DNA of 64,000 bases from Escherichia coli (GTDB taxonomy: Bacteria; Pseudomonadota; Gammaproteobacteria; Enterobacterales; Enterobacteriaceae): assembly GCF_013315695.1 (NCBI RefSeq), contig NZ_CP054353.1. The stretch is one strand, 5' to 3'. The translations under genes and the position numbers were made by a program. The notes under the pieces are model-generated. The model made no database searches. It worked only from the letters and a program-made list of their open reading frames with translations, and was not told the origin of the DNA. Positions 4,073-57,720 of the stretch are shown here, piece after piece. Each line of letters starts with the position of its first letter. Within the stretch, counting starts at the first letter, position 1.

Positions 4073-4089
4073 ACTACTGTGAAGTGCTG

Positions 4090-4216
4090 CAACCCGTAGG
4101 CCGAATAAGGCGGTTACGCTGCATCCGACATCTAACGCCCGAGCCGGTTGCCTGATGCGACGCTGACGCGTCTTATCAGCATACGCCACATCCGGCAAAC
4201 CATGCCGGATGTGGCA
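4090..4216. repeat. REP/BIME cluster (GCCGGATG / CTTATC-type palindromic units) between convergent eco and mqo
   Basis: Three imperfect palindromic units resembling the REP consensus read in sequence. Confidence 0.7.
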
Positions 4217-15944: not shown

Positions 15945-16030
15945 CCTGTAGGCCAGATAAGACGCGTTAGTGTCTTATCTGGCATTTGCACTGAATGCCA
16001 GATGCGGCGTAAACGCCTTATCCGTCCTAC
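15945..16030. repeat. REP-like palindromic units between convergent rcsB and rcsC
   Basis: GATGCGGCGTAAACGCCTTATCCG-type units read in sequence. Confidence 0.6.
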
Positions 16031-43839: not shown

Positions 43840-43955
43840 ATTCATCCGGCAACCGAGCCAAGCCTGATGCGGCGCTTGCCGCGTCTTATCAGGCCTACAA
43901 ATGCTCCCCGTAGGCCAGATAAGGCGTTTACGCCGCATCCGGCAACAGTGCCGGT
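43840..43955. repeat. REP/BIME cluster between convergent ubiG and yfaL
   Basis: Several GCCGGATGCGGCG / CTTATCAGGCCTAC-type units. Confidence 0.7.
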
Positions 43956-50705: not shown

Positions 50706-50835
50706 TATTGAGATGCCGGATGCGGCGTGAACGCCTTATCCGGCATACGGCTCGGTTTGTAGGCCTGATAAGACGCGCCAGCGTCGCATCAGGCACAGGA
50801 TGCGGCGTAAAATGCCTTATCCGGCATTAAACTCC
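50706..50835. repeat. REP/BIME cluster between nrdA and nrdB
   Basis: Tandem GCCGGATGCGGCG...CTTATCCGGC units. Confidence 0.7.
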
Positions 50836-51981: not shown

Positions 51982-52235
51982 TGGCCCGCGTTACCCTGCG
52001 CATCACTGGCACACAGCTGCTGTGCCAGGATGAACACCCTTCCCTTCTGGCGGCGCTGGAATCCCACAATGTGGCGGTTGAGTATCAGTGCCGCGAAGGT
52101 TACTGCGGTTCCTGTCGCACACGCCTTGTTGCAGGCCAGGTGGACTGGATTGCCGAACCGTTAGCCTTTATTCAGCCGGGGGAAATTTTGCCCTGTTGTT
52201 GCCGGGCAAAAGGCGATATTGAAATCGAGTTGTGA
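51981..52235 (+). CDS. yfaE: 2Fe-2S ferredoxin YfaE (NrdB diferric cofactor maintenance)
   Basis: 84-aa ORF with Cys cluster (CREGYCGSC...CC); start overlaps nrdB stop. Confidence 0.85.
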   Translation: MARVTLRITGTQLLCQDEHPSLLAALESHNVAVEYQCREGYCGSCRTRLVAGQVDWIAEPLAFIQPGEILPCCCRAKGDIEIEL

Positions 52236-52288
52236 TCGGGTACTAGCGCCAGATACGACGCTTACGCGTATTATCTGGCCTACAACGA

Positions 52289-52939
52289 TTACATGGCGTA
52301 GTAATACGCTTTCACCTGCTCCCAGTCCGCTTTAGGGATCGGCTCCAGATATTTTTCCAGCTGGCGGAAGTCATGATTAATCGCTTTATCACGACGCAAG
52401 CGGCGACGACTTTTCTCCAGGTCAAGAAATCCAGCTTCTGCCTTACCTTCTGTTTTCACATAGATATGGCGAACATAACAACAGCCATGCTGACAATTAA
52501 CGCTATGCATTTTCTTAAACGCCAGCGCCACTGCTTTCAACATGGCTTGCCGTACTTCGTCAGAATAAGGCGATACTGCATGCCGGGCATACCAGTCAGC
52601 AATGCTGATGAACCCCGCCATATCTTCAGTCACCAGCAACGCGCGCCATTCCCCCTCAATTTTCACCGCTTCACCAAAAACGATCTTCGGCACGATGACA
52701 CCAGCCCGTTCCAGTTCTTTAATTACCGCAACCTCACGGACAATCGTTGGTCGACCGAACGGATAACGTACGGAATGAAACAGATGATGCGTCATGCGCT
52801 TTACATATAGCTTTTTGCCGTTGCGCTCGACGCATTGCACCCCGCTCATACCATTACGGCGATAGTTAGGCTCTTCAACCCAGTCGCCCTCTGTTGCCCA
52901 CCAGTGATTAAATTCGTCGTGCTTTGCTGAAACTGCCAT
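52289..52939 (-). CDS. inaA: InaA, kinase-like protein (Kdo/WaaP family fold)
   Basis: 216-aa ORF matching InaA. Confidence 0.8.
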   Translation of the reverse strand: MAVSAKHDEFNHWWATEGDWVEEPNYRRNGMSGVQCVERNGKKLYVKRMTHHLFHSVRYPFGRPTIVREVAVIKELERAGVIVPKIVFGEAVKIEGEWRALLVTEDMAGFISIADWYARHAVSPYSDEVRQAMLKAVALAFKKMHSVNCQHGCCYVRHIYVKTEGKAEAGFLDLEKSRRRLRRDKAINHDFRQLEKYLEPIPKADWEQVKAYYYAM

Positions 52940-53019
52940 ACCCTATCGCCTGTCATTTTTTATTTACGACAATGACTATAGGTGGTTACCTGCGAAAAAT
53001 CTTAATGAAACGTGTCGTA

Positions 53020-54210
53020 TTAATGAATTTCTTTTGCCACTACTAGCGCGACACCGCTTTTGCCCTTCATTTGCAGCGCATAGACTCCACCAGCCACTAC
53101 CACTAATAGTGCACCCAGCAGATAAATCATTCGGTAGCCAGTATGTGCAACCATCATCCCCATCACACAGGCTCCCAGCGCCAGGCCTGCATCCATCGCA
53201 TTGAAGAAGAGGGAGTTTGCGACACCGATTTTATGCGGTTCCACTGAACTGATAATCTGCGTCTGAAAAACTGGCGTCACGGAACCATACCCGATACCAA
53301 TCAATGCGCCAGAAACAACCATCATTATGCTTCCCTGGGTGTAGCCGAGAACCACCAGTCCTACCGTAAAGAACACAAGGCAAGGGTAAACCACATATTT
53401 CGGTCCTTTTTTGTCGCAGACATTGCCGGTAAAGGTACGGCAGATCATCAGGAAGATAGCGTAGCAAAGCAGGAAATTACTGGCTGCCGACATCAGGTTA
53501 AGTTCGCGTGCATAAAGCGCCAGAAAAGCAGAAACCCCGGCATACGAAAAGGTCATAAAAAAGGTGACCATCGCAAATGGCAACGCCGCGCGATCGAACA
53601 TGGCGGCGAAGCCCATTTTCGGCGTTGAACCATCAGCATGGCTGATAACCGGCGGCACTGTCATAATCAGCGACAGAATAATCCCCACCGCTGCCACGCC
53701 GGTGCATAACCAGAAAGCCATATTAAAGGCCTCCCAGCGCGCCATATTCAGGCCAATCCACGGCCCGACCACCATTGCCAGCCCCATTGCCAGAGAGAAA
53801 AAACTGATGCCCTCCCCACGTCGGGAGGCCGGGATCAGCCGCGCGGAAATCGTTCCTTTTACCGTAGTGATAACCCCGAAGGTAATACCATGAAGCACCC
53901 GAATAAAAAGCAGTGATTCAATTGAGTGGCAAAAAGGATACAGCGCAGTGACCACCAAGAAGGCCAGAGAAGAGAGCCCCAGAATAGTTTTATTCGAGTA
54001 TTTGCCCACCCATTGCCCGGCAAAGGGGCGAATAACAATGGCGGCAATTAAAAATAAAGTCACCAACAAACCTGCTTTATCAGGAGAGGCATGCAAGCGG
54101 TCTGAGATATAAATTGGCAACAATGTTAGTAAAACATAAAAGACGAAGAAAATAATAAAGCTGATGATGGTTATTGCCCAAAAATCCTTCGTCCATAACT
54201 TCTCTTTCAT
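53020..54210 (-). CDS. MFS transporter (12-TM efflux-type)
   Basis: 396-aa hydrophobic ORF with MFS loop motifs; divergent from LysR regulator. Confidence 0.75.
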   Translation of the reverse strand: MKEKLWTKDFWAITIISFIIFFVFYVLLTLLPIYISDRLHASPDKAGLLVTLFLIAAIVIRPFAGQWVGKYSNKTILGLSSLAFLVVTALYPFCHSIESLLFIRVLHGITFGVITTVKGTISARLIPASRRGEGISFFSLAMGLAMVVGPWIGLNMARWEAFNMAFWLCTGVAAVGIILSLIMTVPPVISHADGSTPKMGFAAMFDRAALPFAMVTFFMTFSYAGVSAFLALYARELNLMSAASNFLLCYAIFLMICRTFTGNVCDKKGPKYVVYPCLVFFTVGLVVLGYTQGSIMMVVSGALIGIGYGSVTPVFQTQIISSVEPHKIGVANSLFFNAMDAGLALGACVMGMMVAHTGYRMIYLLGALLVVVAGGVYALQMKGKSGVALVVAKEIH

Positions 54211-54325
54211 ACCCTACCGCCTGTCAGGATGACGCACGCAGACAACACTCCCGTTACTGCGGTTGCGTCAAATTGTGATGTACTTTGCAGAACAGAAGTA
54301 TAAATGGCGGCATGCTATTAGAGAA

Positions 54326-54340
54326 ATTAATCGTTTTAAT
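54326..54340. promoter_or_regulatory. LysR-type T-N11-A box ATTAATCGTTTTAAT in divergent promoter
   Basis: Inverted half sites ATTAA/TTAAT with 5-bp spacer, 22 bp upstream of the LysR gene. Confidence 0.45.
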
Positions 54341-54361
54341 ATTATTGATTAGCAAACTCTA

Positions 54362-55261
54362 ATGACTCTTACCCAAATAAATTCTTTACTCGCCGTGCTG
54401 GATTACGGTGGCTTTACTGAAGCCAGCAAGCGATTGTTCATGACGCAGTCGGCGGTAAGTCAGGCAATTGCTGCCCTCGAACAAGAACTTGGCGTGAATA
54501 TACTGTTACGCGATCGCCGTAAAGCTATACAACTGACCTCTGCAGGTCACCGCATTATGCATCATCTGCGCGCCATTAATCGGGAAGTGAACGCAGTAAA
54601 AGAGATAGCCGAGCAGGAAAAGCAGAACCCTCAAAGAACGCTGAGACTTGGTTGTTTCCCCAGCGTCTGCGCCTGTATCTTACCGGCTGTGATTCGCTAC
54701 TTTGAAATTCATCATCCGAATATAAAAATTATTCCTTTTGAGGAAAATAGCACAGCGATTATTGATTCCCTTCAGAATGAATCCATTGATGCCGGTTTTG
54801 TTCATTTTCCGGTGAGCGGAATGTACTCCGTGCCCATTTATCAGGATAAATTCACCGTAGTGTTACCGCCCAACCATGCTCTGGCAAAAAACAGCACTAT
54901 TACAGTGGAAGAGTTAATGGGTGAACCATTAATTATTAGTAAAGGACGCTATGAATTAAGCATTATGGCACTATTTAAAGAAAAGAATATTACCCCACAG
55001 ATAAAATATGAATTTAATCACCCGGATACAGCGATCAGTTTTATTCGACAGGGATTAGGCATCGCCTTATTACCAGAGTTAACGCTGAAAACCATTGCAG
55101 ATGAATTGTGTTCCGTTCCTCTCGAACCAACCTTCTATCGACAGATTTCGTTGCTGGCTAAAGAAAAGCCGGTAGAAGGCAGTCCACTGTTTTTACTACA
55201 AATGTGCACAGAACAATTAGTGGAGAGTGGAAAATTTGATATGAGACAGGATGGCGCATGA
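54362..55261 (+). CDS. LysR-family transcriptional regulator, full length
   Basis: 299-aa ORF with N-terminal HTH (TEASKRLFMTQSAVSQAI); corresponds to the locus I recall as the yfaH remnant in K-12. Confidence 0.75.
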   Translation: MTLTQINSLLAVLDYGGFTEASKRLFMTQSAVSQAIAALEQELGVNILLRDRRKAIQLTSAGHRIMHHLRAINREVNAVKEIAEQEKQNPQRTLRLGCFPSVCACILPAVIRYFEIHHPNIKIIPFEENSTAIIDSLQNESIDAGFVHFPVSGMYSVPIYQDKFTVVLPPNHALAKNSTITVEELMGEPLIISKGRYELSIMALFKEKNITPQIKYEFNHPDTAISFIRQGLGIALLPELTLKTIADELCSVPLEPTFYRQISLLAKEKPVEGSPLFLLQMCTEQLVESGKFDMRQDGA

Positions 55262-55280
55262 ACGCCATCCTGCAGTAGCA

Positions 55281-56357
55281 TTACTCTTTATTAAGGAATT
55301 TTACTGCCTTATCAGGGAAATCAGTAAACAGCCCATTTACACCCGCTTTGTTATACAGAGCATCATATAACTGATTCACATCAGTAGTGTATTCAGGCAG
55401 CTTATCTGACCGCACGGTGTAAGGATGCACTACCAGTTTATTCTGCTGAGCATCTTGCACCATGCCAGTGAGTTTGATATTACCTGGCTGCGATGTCTCC
55501 TCAATCAACATATGGTAATCCGGACCAATACCATCAGCATATTCCGCCACCTGTTTCATGGCCCCCGGCTTAAACATCCAGTCGTAGTTGTAATTAACCC
55601 AGCTTCCGTCCGGCTGTTTCTGCTGAGTTTCGTTCCAGTCGGTATAGGCAATCAGCTGTACCAGATTGAGGTCCATGCCCATTTTAGGTTCCAGCTCATT
55701 CTTAATACGCTTCAGTTCATCGGCATCAAAACATTGCAAATAAACTTTGTCGTCCTTACCGGTGTAACCATATTTCTTCAGCACTTCCAGCGTTTTTGCC
55801 GCAATATCCTTCCCTTCCTGATGATGGAACCACGGCGCTTTAATCTCCGGGTAGATACCAATATTTTTCCCGGTAGAGTGATTTAACCCCTGAACAAATT
55901 CAATCTCTTCTTCAAAGGTGTGCACCCGGAAGTCGGACTTACCCATTGGGAAACGCCCCGGATAAGTCTGTACTTTCTTACCGTTTTCAATATCGAAACC
56001 TTCGGTAAATTTCAGTGACTTAATTTCATCGAGCGTGAAATCTATCGCGTAGTAACGACCGTCTTTGCGCGCCCGATCCGGGAAACGATCGGCAACATCA
56101 GTAACACGATCGAGATAATGGTCATGCAGAACAACCAGATGGTCGTCTTTGGTCATCACCAAATCCTGTTCCAGATAATCCGCTCCCTGCGCATACGCCA
56201 TCGCTTTTGCTGGCAGCGTATGCTCCGGCAAATATCCACTGGCACCGCGATGGGCGATGACTATTTTTTCGTTGCTGTCCGCCGCCATTGCACTGCTTCC
56301 CATGATCATTCCACTCATCATGATCGCCATGCTAAGGTTTTTCAGCGTCAATTTCAT
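55281..56357 (-). CDS. glpQ: periplasmic glycerophosphodiester phosphodiesterase
   Basis: ORF 55281..56414; start placed at ATG 56357 (MKLTLKNLSMA... signal peptide) with GGAGG 8 nt upstream. Confidence 0.9.
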   Translation of the reverse strand: MKLTLKNLSMAIMMSGMIMGSSAMAADSNEKIVIAHRGASGYLPEHTLPAKAMAYAQGADYLEQDLVMTKDDHLVVLHDHYLDRVTDVADRFPDRARKDGRYYAIDFTLDEIKSLKFTEGFDIENGKKVQTYPGRFPMGKSDFRVHTFEEEIEFVQGLNHSTGKNIGIYPEIKAPWFHHQEGKDIAAKTLEVLKKYGYTGKDDKVYLQCFDADELKRIKNELEPKMGMDLNLVQLIAYTDWNETQQKQPDGSWVNYNYDWMFKPGAMKQVAEYADGIGPDYHMLIEETSQPGNIKLTGMVQDAQQNKLVVHPYTVRSDKLPEYTTDVNQLYDALYNKAGVNGLFTDFPDKAVKFLNKE

Positions 56358-56361
56358 GCCA

Positions 56362-57720
56362 TTAGCCTCCGTTGCGTTTTTGCAGTAATTCCTGATGGCG
56401 ACGTTTTTCGCCAATCATCACAACAATCAACAAGATAACCGCCAGAATGCTGCCGCCAATCATTACCATAAAGCCGCCATCCCAGCCGAAGAAGTCCACG
56501 GTGTAGCCAACAATCGCGCTCGCCGCCACCGAACCGCCCAGGTAACCAAACAGCCCGGTAAAGCCCGCTGCCGTACCTGCCGCTTTTTTCGGTGCCAGTT
56601 CCAGCGCATGCAGACCGATCAGCATCACAGGGCCGTAGATCAGGAAGCCGATAACAATCATACAAATCATATCTACGGTTGGGTTACCTGCCGGGTTCAT
56701 CCAGTAAACGATAGTCGCGATGGTTACCAGTGTCATAAAGAAGACGCCGGTGGCCCCACGGTTGCCACGGAAGACTTTATCCGACATCCAGCCGCACAGC
56801 AGGGTGCCCGGAATGCCCGCATACTCATAGAAGAAGTAGGCCCAGGAGGATTTATCCAGCGCGAAGTGTTTCACCTCTTTCAGATAAGTCGGTGACCAGT
56901 CGAGGATGCCGTAACGCAGCAGATAAACGAACACGTTGGCGATAGCGATGTACCACAGCAGTTTGTTCGGCAGCACGTACTGCATGAAGATTTGCTTCGC
57001 CGTCAGCTCCTGTTCCGCTTTTTCGTTATAGTCGTCCGGATAATCATTTTTGTACTCTTCGATCGGCGGCAGGCCACAGGATTGCGGGGTATCGCGCATC
57101 ATCGCAAAGGCGAACAGTGCCACCAGAATGGCGCAGAAAGCGGGCATATAGAGCGCCGCGTGCCAGTCATTGAACCAGGCCATCCCCAGCAGGAACAGCA
57201 GCGGCGGAATACCACCACCGACGTTGTGTGCACAGTTCCACACTGACACAATGCCGCCGCGTTCTTTCTGCGACCACCAGTGCACCATAGTACGGCCACA
57301 CGGCGGCCACCCCATCCCCTGGAACCAACCGCAGAGGAACAACAGTACAAACATCACCGCAATGCTCGACGTCGCCCACGGCACAAAGCCCATAAACAAC
57401 ATCACTGCCGCCGCCAGAATCAAACCTGCGGGCAGGAAAACGCGCGGATTCGAGCGATCCGACACCGAGCCCATGATGAATTTCGAAAATCCATAAGCAA
57501 TCGAGATCCCCGAAAGGGCAAAACCTAAATCACCGCGTGAGAATCCCTGCTCGACCAGATAAGGCATAGCGAGCGCAAAGTTCTTACGAACCAAATAGTA
57601 AGCAGCATAACCAAAAAATATCCCCAGGAAAATTTGCCAGCGCAATCGACGATAAGTCGGATCGATCTCCGCAGCAGGTAAGCGCGCTTTGTGTGGCGCT
57701 GGTTTAAAAATACTCAACAT
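56362..57720 (-). CDS. glpT: glycerol-3-phosphate:phosphate antiporter
   Basis: 452-aa MFS ORF matching GlpT. Confidence 0.95.

Follow-up and report, generated by a model that had tools for sequence, protein, structure and literature searches.

The inaA-glpQ interval and its two genes

Between inaA and glpQ, the window (the whole 64-kb stretch of E. coli DNA analysed here) carries two genes that diverge across a 151-bp spacer and encode a major facilitator superfamily (MFS) permease and a LysR-type transcriptional regulator (LTTR). An earlier note on this DNA had described such a pair in an interval of about 2.3 kb. This is confirmed here by the coordinates collected in Table 1: both ORFs are present, the interval measures 2341 bp, and the ORF list holds no other non-nested ORF within it.

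Table 1. Position, strand and basis of the features at the inaA-glpQ locus (window coordinates).
Feature	Position	Strand	Basis or remark
inaA	52289-52939	-	flanks the pair
MFS permease, 396 aa, ortholog of EHEC z3494	53020-54210	-	ORF and Pfam
Left CAGATAAA copy, left deletion end-point	53119-53126		K-12 junction comparison
Divergent control region, 151 bp, between both start codons	54211-54361		sequence, alignments
Second conserved spacer block GCGTCAAATTGTGAT, TGTGAT invariant	54264-54279		two alignments
Operator-like block ATTAGAGAAATTAATCGTTTTAAT	54317-54340		cross-genus spacer alignment
Dyad ATTAA-TCGTT-TTAAT (ATTAA-N5-TTAAT)	54326-54340		fits T-N11-A at 54327-54339
LysR-type transcriptional regulator, 299 aa, ortholog of EHEC Z3495	54362-55261	+	ORF and Pfam
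Right CAGATAAA copy, right deletion end-point	54998-55005		K-12 junction comparison
A4 run, A5 in relatives	55231-55234	+	DNA alignment with O157:H7, K-12 and strain B1
Inverted repeat GGATGGCG-catgaa-CGCCATCC	55249-55270	between convergent LysR and glpQ	read from sequence
glpQ	stop at 55281	-	flanks the pair, convergent with the LysR gene

The permease ORF matched Pfam MFS_1 (1.8e-58; 198.6 bits against a cut-off of 33.4) in two stretches, the best of them covering residues 14-336. The 396-aa MFS transporter that had been claimed is thus borne out, and the product is a predicted member of the major facilitator superfamily. It shares 99% amino acid identity with the O157:H7 protein, and its orthologs in Salmonella, Klebsiella and Kluyvera are also 396 aa long and about 85% identical. 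The homology search suggested for its subfamily gave a divided answer, since a distant likeness to YfcJ and YhhS emerged but every curated NCBIfam subfamily cut-off was missed by far. The best-scoring models were those of the YfcJ/YhhS group, PRK05122 (109.8 bits, cut-off 374) and PRK12382 (85.1 bits, cut-off 364), and membership of that subfamily was rejected on these scores. In BLASTP, YhhS was 24% identical over 376 aa and YfcJ gave a weak local match of 119 aa only. We therefore regard the permease as a distant paralog of this group and not as one of its members.

The regulator, of about 300 aa, shows the domain organization of an LTTR, with a predicted N-terminal winged-HTH (Pfam HTH_1, residues 3-63, 65.5 bits, cut-off 26.6, 4e-18) and a predicted C-terminal LysR substrate-binding domain (LysR_substrate, residues 88-267, 126.8 bits, cut-off 28, 1e-36). 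Over 291 aa it is 98% identical to its O157:H7 counterpart. No named LTTR equivalog (GltC, CidR, AlsR, CynR, HcaR, CysB, OxyR and others) passed its NCBIfam cut-off, the scores being 129 against 350 for GltC, 126 against 415 for CidR and 119 against 277 for CynR, and the nearest PDB relatives, CysB and BenM, reached only about 1e-21. The ORF previously described as a full-length 299-aa regulator is exact and includes both domains, although the canonical length is 292 aa: in the protein alignment, the orthologs, among them the allele of O157:H7 and the yfaH remnant of K-12, terminate in GKI* (292 aa). The window allele is longer because of a 1-bp deletion in the A run at the last codon, a -1 frameshift that turns GKI* into GKFDMRQDGA*. 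The 299-aa form also occurs in strain B1 and in matches of 100% coverage and 99.9-100% identity, including IAI39 and CE10, which suggests that it is tolerated; the seven-residue C-terminal extension could impair the regulator.

The inverted repeat located where LysR and glpQ converge is also kept in K-12, as seen by DNA alignment, and is probably a terminator hairpin shared by both genes. It was not called by the terminator scan because it lacks a T-run. The extended LysR ORF of the window ends inside the loop of this repeat. An Rfam search of positions 52000-56500 returned two sub-threshold matches only, neither of them meaningful for the LysR-MFS pair.

The retained pair had been correctly observed but is already known: judged by sequence comparison, it is the ortholog of z3494/z3495, that is, O-island 97 (OI-97) of EHEC O157:H7, a locus already named and partly studied. 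OI-97 has the same position and divergent architecture. It differs from the window in its 292-aa regulator and in that a hypothetical protein, instead of glpQ, is encoded directly downstream of the LysR gene. OI-97 of strain EDL933 is described as a 2006-bp island absent from K-12, with z3494 as an MFS_YfcJ-like protein and z3495 as an LTTR, and is called laterally acquired (Wang et al., Microorganisms 2024, PMC10819331).

The shared spacer and its conserved dyad

The T-N11-A type box that had been noted in the shared promoter stood only in part. The bare pattern is no evidence, because the window contains it 3979 times where 3873 occurrences are expected, but a conserved dyad that fits it does exist in the spacer. 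This dyad is centred 29 bp upstream of the start codon (ATG) of the LysR gene, and ATTAA-N5-TTAAT was invariant in nine orthologous spacers from six genera. Within the same set of spacers, invariance extended to 15 of the 17 bases in AAATTAATCNTNTTAAT (the mean column identity of the alignment being 53%), and this sequence has a sole match with up to two mismatches in the 64-kb window. As a T-N11-A-type dyad located in the shared spacer, it is a candidate LTTR operator, and it offers a precise one for an uncharacterised regulator conserved across the Enterobacteriaceae. For the second conserved block, GCGTCAAATTGTGAT, possible roles are those of a CRP half-site, an activation site or a promoter element. 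Scanning for consensus promoters gave no call within the spacer, and promoter and terminator counts alike did not exceed those expected from shuffled sequence.

The K-12 deletion and the distribution of the pair

The earlier note stated that K-12 retains only a yfaH remnant at this position, and took the window to represent the undeleted ancestral state; both statements held. MG1655 carries the yfaH pseudogene (b2238) alone, in an inaA-glpQ interval of 462 bp, and the comparison found no intact pair there. In this interval, a 3'-terminal MFS fragment of 107 bp is joined to a 3'-terminal LysR fragment of ~264 bp, with the 8-bp microhomology CAGATAAA at the junction, so that, with respect to the window, 1879 bp are deleted between two CAGATAAA copies. 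Because both 3' gene ends are fused at the microhomology, the K-12 site is a deletion scar and not an empty site. The alignments presented here show that K-12-type strains lost the module by a single 1879-bp microhomology deletion, with yfaH left behind. The K-12 locus has accordingly lost the whole spacer, the parts of the LysR gene that encode the HTH domain and most of the effector domain, and all of the MFS gene except those 107 bp. The remnant yfaH corresponds to the 3' end of the window-type LysR gene, of which residues 226-291 matched profile positions 2-67 of 68 in the NCBIfam yfaH model NF007272 (PRK09729; 140.8 bits, cut-off 139). Literature searches yielded nothing functional on yfaH, and no papers on STM2280 and STM2281, which we take to be the Salmonella locus tags for the pair.

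Outside E. coli, the pair was found in the same position (nrdAB-yfaE-MFS<>LysR-glp) in E. albertii, Salmonella, Citrobacter, Klebsiella and Kluyvera, and this conserved position beside the nrdAB-yfaE and glp genes argues that the state seen in the window is ancestral. In Leminorella, LysR and MFS stay paired in a different neighbourhood. For the LysR protein, identity fell from 90% (E. albertii) through about 80% (Salmonella), about 77% (Citrobacter) and about 69% (Klebsiella) to about 60% (Leminorella). For the MFS gene, dN/dS was 0.025 with respect to O157 (46 synonymous and 4 nonsynonymous differences) and 0.076 with respect to E. albertii, and for the LysR gene it was 0.073 with respect to E. 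albertii. These values, of about 0.03-0.08, show here a signature of purifying selection on both genes where they are kept.

A census of 5426 complete E. coli genomes gave about 1212 with the pair, counted as at least 80% of the interval covered, and the closest matches to the window locus were IAI39 and CE10. The K-12-type scar was present in about 3100, with about 3116 genomes falling in the 90-95% identity band; sampled K-12-like matches covered 19-20% of the query and spanned 459-462 bp. Another 1057 of the 5426 genomes have an LF82-like gene-less interval of 202 bp. With an O145 type, which has a regulator allele of its own, the locus has four states, the others being the window type, the K-12-type scar and the LF82-like interval. 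The middle of the LF82/A32-type interval, roughly 71-88 bases (intergenic about 83-170), gave no significant similarity to the pair alleles, the outgroup loci or the rest of the window, and for this reason loss in the LF82-like group is deduced from the outgroups and not from a scar. In addition, the closest relatives include strains with IS1 insertions in the LysR gene, and the protein database holds shortened E. coli LysR variants of 241, 228, 199 and 184 aa. The two deletion states, the IS1 insertions and the shortened variants together show that the module is dispensable in E. coli.

Proposed mechanism and role of the module

We consider it probable that the pair is an ancestral enterobacterial module of an LTTR and a divergent 12-helix-type MFS protein, retained here, orthologous to OI-97 and controlled by the LTTR through the dyad. 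We infer regulation of the MFS gene from the conserved pairing and the operator-like dyad. According to this model, the LTTR would bind the ATTAA-N5-TTAAT dyad upstream of its own start codon and repress its own promoter; once a small-molecule co-inducer is bound, it would activate the MFS promoter on the opposite strand, and the MFS protein would work as a proton-coupled exporter. To this, an effect of the regulator in trans on rcsF and the LEE may be added from the work with O157:H7 (PMC10819331). As a working model we take PunR-PunC (YdhB-YdhC; PMC8376909), in which a LysR-type regulator is likewise divergent from a single MFS gene, although there is no close sequence relationship and neither protein was among the best family matches of the window pair.

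The top NCBIfam matches of the permease (YfcJ/YhhS-type, a multidrug model, CntE, EmrB, MxcK, Cmx and BcbE) are mainly exporters, and its nearest solved structures are NorA, a representative of the DHA1-type drug:H+ antiporters (2e-13, N-terminal half only), and the sugar efflux transporter PDB 6kki (9e-5). On this basis, a proton-coupled exporter is more likely than an importer, even if direction of transport and substrate are guesses, because the permease lies under every subfamily cut-off and is 24% identical to YhhS. LTTR-controlled uptake systems exist, and the weaker NCBIfam matches include aromatic-acid, galactonate, sialate and 3-hydroxyphenylpropionate symporters, so that a substrate:H+ symporter through which the LTTR induces nutrient uptake is conceivable. 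We find it doubtful, since exporters are the strongest matches by both family and structure and a catabolic enzyme gene accompanied the pair in none of the seven contexts examined.

Somewhat less likely still, in our opinion, is that the regulator acts mainly in trans, for example on rcsF and through it on Rcs and the LEE, with the MFS gene as an unrelated or incidental neighbour. In the 2024 paper, Z3495 is reported to raise LEE expression via rcsF in O157:H7, deletion of z3495 to lower LEE transcripts, adherence and mouse colonisation, and deletion of z3494 to give no phenotype in the assays used there; binding at the rcsF promoter was seen by EMSA and ChIP-qPCR (PMC10819331). These LEE and rcsF effects pertain to O157:H7 only, and all the ChIP-seq enrichments listed in that source are weak (log2 <= 1.81), many of them in rRNA, ribosomal-protein and chaperone genes. 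Against an incidental neighbour, the divergent pairing is kept out to Leminorella in another neighbourhood, and the invariant dyad is located in the shared spacer and, with up to 3 mismatches allowed over its 15 positions, had no match in the rcsF fragment of K-12 that is orthologous to the one used in the published EMSA. Moreover, most of the species with the pair are not known to carry the LEE, and control of the LEE therefore cannot be the conserved function.

A broader version, which we put forward as speculation and think rather unlikely, is that of an ancient, vertically inherited sensing and efflux module of the Enterobacteriaceae, with a rigid operator, lost at least twice in E. coli (K-12-type scar and LF82-like interval) and kept there as two deeply diverged regulator alleles, whose sensed and possibly exported metabolite feeds Rcs and virulence control in the lineages that retain the pair. 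If this were true, K-12 would naturally lack a conserved signalling input and serve as a null for it.

We hold it to be improbable that the module is decaying in this strain, its regulator inactivated by the terminal frameshift and the pair reduced to a functional pseudo-module. The frameshift itself, the IS1 insertions and the shortened variants would agree with decay, but residues 1-291 with both domains are unchanged, only the final residue being altered and seven added, and the 299-aa form recurs in strain B1, IAI39, CE10 and the other near-identical matches.

Finally, independent gain of the pair as a laterally acquired O-island by EHEC/EPEC and some ExPEC lineages is scarcely credible: its absence from K-12 and LF82-like strains, the two separate carrier clades from which independent acquisition is inferred in the source paper (PMC10819331) and the AT-richness of the window-type LysR gene (GC3 0.41 against about 0.5-0.6 in neighbours) are set against the K-12 scar and the single chromosomal position in five outgroups, which largely refute it as judged from these comparisons, together with a LysR divergence that grows with taxonomic distance. 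A horizontally acquired genomic island was likewise rejected as a description of the locus, the inaA-glpQ interval having no mobility gene such as an integrase, nor a tRNA or a flanking repeat.

Polymorphism of this kind, with an LTTR-transporter pair present in some strains and absent from others, is common in E. coli, and nothing here would surprise a specialist; the value of the ancestral, secondarily deleted module described above is mainly corrective and practical. OI-97 is a textbook example in which a supposed "O-island" reflects a deletion in K-12, and the correction matters because the sole functional paper on it reads lateral acquisition (PMC10819331). On the practical side, K-12 and the LF82-like strains naturally provide a null background and would therefore allow a clean add-back of the pair in the search for its ligand and substrate. 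Ten primers or homology arms listed in Table S3 of that paper (PMC10819331) match the O157:H7 locus with 0 mismatches; in the window, eight of these find their site with 0-1 mismatch, and the remaining two, which fail, belong to the 3' end, where the sequence is divergent or frameshifted. The primers published for z3495 map to the LysR gene of the window. The forward homology arm of the OI-97 knockout maps to positions 53087-53126, and the left boundary of this published knockout coincides with the left CAGATAAA copy.

The gene pair and the K-12 deletion

The earlier note had placed a 299-aa LysR-family regulator and a divergently transcribed 396-aa MFS transporter in about 2.3 kb between inaA and glpQ, and the ORF list reproduces their coordinates, lengths and orientations exactly, in an interval of 2341 bp. 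The observation is thus confirmed and its interpretation supported. The pair is already known as O-island 97 (OI-97) of E. coli O157:H7 (z3494/z3495), with yfaH as its K-12 remnant. What is added here is the deletion mechanism, a three-way population structure, evidence that the pair is ancestral and not acquired, a conserved candidate operator, a terminal frameshift in the window strain, and the finding that E. coli has another, deeply diverged allele of the regulator.

Features of the inaA-glpQ interval and its flanks, in window positions
Feature	Position	Strand	Basis
MFS ORF, 396 aa	53020-54210	minus	ORF list; Pfam MFS_1, 1.8e-58
LysR ORF, 299 aa	54362-55261	plus	ORF list; Pfam HTH_1 and LysR_substrate
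inaA	52289-52939	minus	One flank of the pair
glpQ	stop at 55281	minus	Other flank of the pair
Second conserved spacer block, GCGTCAAATTGTGAT	54264-54279		Spacer alignment

As the note had stated for K-12, the MG1655 interval (462 bp) contains only the pseudogene yfaH (b2238), whose NCBIfam model (68 residues) matches residues 226-291 of the window regulator slightly over cut-off (140.8 vs 139 bits). Alignment with the window confirmed that the two intact genes are absent from K-12 and gave two arms, one up to 53126 and the other from 54994, both including CAGATAAA (copies at 53119-53126 and 54998-55005). Since the arms overlap on this sequence, K-12 carries a microhomology deletion of 1879 bp (2341 - 462 bp), in which both promoters were lost and the MFS gene, reduced to its final 107 bp, became joined to a LysR gene of which the final ~264 bp remain. 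The K-12 locus is a scar rather than an empty site.

The mechanical glpQ call (55281-56414) yields 377 aa from a TTG start against 358 aa (1077 bp) in annotated GlpQ proteins; the added upstream part is therefore an artefact of ORF calling. Between yfaE and inaA, a match to naRNA4, a REP-derived RNA, lies below the Rfam threshold (52205-52280; 28.9 vs 59.5 bits) and is probably a REP element.

Ancestry of the pair and relation to OI-97

Orthologs of the MFS protein (396 aa, ~85% identity) were found in Salmonella, Klebsiella (oxytoca group) and Kluyvera, and identity to the LysR orthologs declines from E. albertii (90%) through Salmonella (~80%), Citrobacter (~77%) and Klebsiella (~69%) to Leminorella (~60%), beyond which it falls sharply to the ~30-40% of unrelated LysR-type regulators (LTTRs). 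The order nrdA-nrdB-yfaE, divergent MFS and LysR genes and then glp genes is kept in Salmonella, Klebsiella, Kluyvera, E. albertii and Citrobacter. In Leminorella the pair is still divergent amid different neighbours, which argues for a functional coupling of the two genes. Between the window and O157:H7, the MFS gene has 4 nonsynonymous differences against 46 synonymous ones (omega 0.025), and against E. albertii omega is 0.076 (MFS) and 0.073 (LysR); judged by these ratios, purifying selection is acting on both genes. The scar, the orthologs, the gene order and the purifying selection support the proposal that the window retains the undeleted ancestral state.

In E. albertii (locus L014, 2445-2636), no intact inaA lies between yfaE and the MFS gene. 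The 216-bp spacer there matches window 52239-52429 at 87%, including the 3' ~140 bp of inaA, a remnant indicating that this gene has been lost by deletion here as well; the region seems prone to deletion. Through the same ~40-bp unit, this spacer also matches the window at several other places (15946-15984, 50758-50796 and 43862-43952). At the corresponding site in Salmonella, Citrobacter, Klebsiella and Kluyvera, inaA was not seen.

OI-97 has been described as an O157-specific region of 2006 bp with two ORFs, z3494 with an MFS_YfcJ-type domain and the LTTR gene z3495 (Wang et al. 2024, PMC10819331). The primers of its Table S3 match the O157:H7 locus without mismatch and the window with 0-1 mismatch; the z3495 knockout arm AAATTAATCGTTTTAATATTATTGATTAGCAAACTCTAAT maps to 54324-54363, and the OI-97 knockout left arm stops precisely at the K-12 junction, 53126. 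The window and O157:H7 proteins are 99% (MFS) and 98% (LysR) identical. According to PMC10819331, deletion of z3495 reduced LEE transcripts, adherence and mouse colonisation, deletion of z3494 had no effect, and Z3495 bound the rcsF promoter (EMSA; ChIP-qPCR, 3.5-fold). The authors' conclusion that z3495 was laterally acquired is contradicted by the K-12 scar and the synteny.

In Table S4 (PMC10819331), the ChIP-seq coordinates look K-12-like (glpQ peak 2,351,168; glpA peak 2,352,683; MG1655 glpQ, glpT and glpA occupy 2,349,935-2,354,275), enrichments are all log2 <= 1.81, many peaks lie in rRNA, ribosomal-protein and chaperone genes, and no rcsF row was seen in the part covered. Mapping of the reads to a K-12-like reference, if that was done, would have hidden any binding at the spacer of the regulator itself. 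In O157:H7 Z1830 (L010, 3802-5313), the sequence past the LysR stop is unlike the window and holds a "hypothetical protein" gene, not glpQ, so that in this lineage an additional insertion or replacement separates z3495 from glpQ.

Control region and proteins

The T-N11-A box claimed for the shared promoter is uninformative as a bare pattern (3979 matches in the window vs 3873 expected), but a dyad in a conserved block stood. Across nine spacers from six genera (mean column identity 53%), there is a single rigid block, AT(T/A)AG-NN-AAATTAATC-N-T-N-TTAAT (54317-54340), whose dyad ATTAA-N5-TTAAT (54326-54340) keeps a constant distance of 29 bp to the LysR start codon. The 17-nt core of the block is found at one place in the 64-kb window and was not found, at up to 3 mismatches, in the K-12 ortholog of the published rcsF EMSA fragment; a consensus promoter scan called no site within the spacer. 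We infer that the dyad is a candidate recognition site. Bound there, the regulator would act as a repressor at its own promoter and also control that of the MFS gene, much as classical LTTRs do.

The homology search for the MFS subfamily disclosed a distant YfcJ/YhhS likeness (24% identity to YhhS), with every curated NCBIfam cut-off missed by far. The models following the YfcJ/YhhS type were mostly exporters (a multidrug model, CntE, EmrB, MxcK, Cmx, BcbE), and the closest structures were NorA (N-terminal half only, 2e-13) and a sugar efflux transporter (PDB 6kki). Because of these matches, and since no catabolic gene accompanied the pair in any context examined, export is the favoured role and import the less probable one. 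The LTTR matched no named NCBIfam equivalog; its nearest structures are CysB and BenM (~1e-21).

The regulator is 299 aa long because an A5 run reads A4 at 55231-55234, shifting the last codon and changing the C-terminus from GKI to GKFDMRQDGA. The GGATGGCG/CGCCATCC hairpin common to LysR and glpQ carries the new stop in its loop, and residues 1-291 are unaltered. This form, also present in strain B1 and in genomes matching the whole interval at 99.9-100% (including IAI39 and CE10), is probably tolerated.

Variation among E. coli genomes

In 5426 complete genomes, at least 80% of the interval was covered in 1212, and ~3116 fell in the 90-95% identity band. Sampled K-12-like matches covered 19-20% of the query and the same 459-462 bp span, which suggests one shared deletion. 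A gene-less 202-bp interval was present in 1057 genomes, LF82 among them; it aligns with the window only to 53038 and from 55249, and its central ~71-88 bases (L003 of strain A32, 4083-4170; same in LF82) had no detectable relative among both genes, the outgroup loci and the rest of the window.

The window matches IAI39, CE10 and clinical isolates related to them at 99.9-100% identity, and some of its closest relatives carry IS1 inside the LysR gene. Independent IS1A and IS1B insertions split this gene in AF14 (L011, 3514-4278; otherwise 100% identical to the window) and in two more of the closest relatives (matches H57 and H66). Truncated regulators are also found in the protein database (E. 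coli, 241, 228, 199 and 184 aa; Salmonella bongori, 177 aa; S. enterica, 165 aa), and with the insertions indicate recurrent inactivation.

A strongly differing haplotype occurs in ~105 carrier genomes (O145 and others). Against O145 RM12275-C1 (L004), the hyper-divergent segment is sharply bounded (window 54050-55330), extending from the LysR gene across the spacer into the initial ~150 bp of the MFS gene at ~75% nucleotide identity, with flanks at 95-100%; between the two LysR proteins identity is 84%, with saturated dS. This allele could come from another Escherichia lineage by recombination, or be an old polymorphism. The LysR gene of the window type is strikingly rich in AT (GC 0.43, GC3 0.41), GC3 being 0.53 in the O145 allele, 0.50 in the Salmonella gene and 0.55 in the adjacent MFS gene, and GC 0.51 in the whole window.
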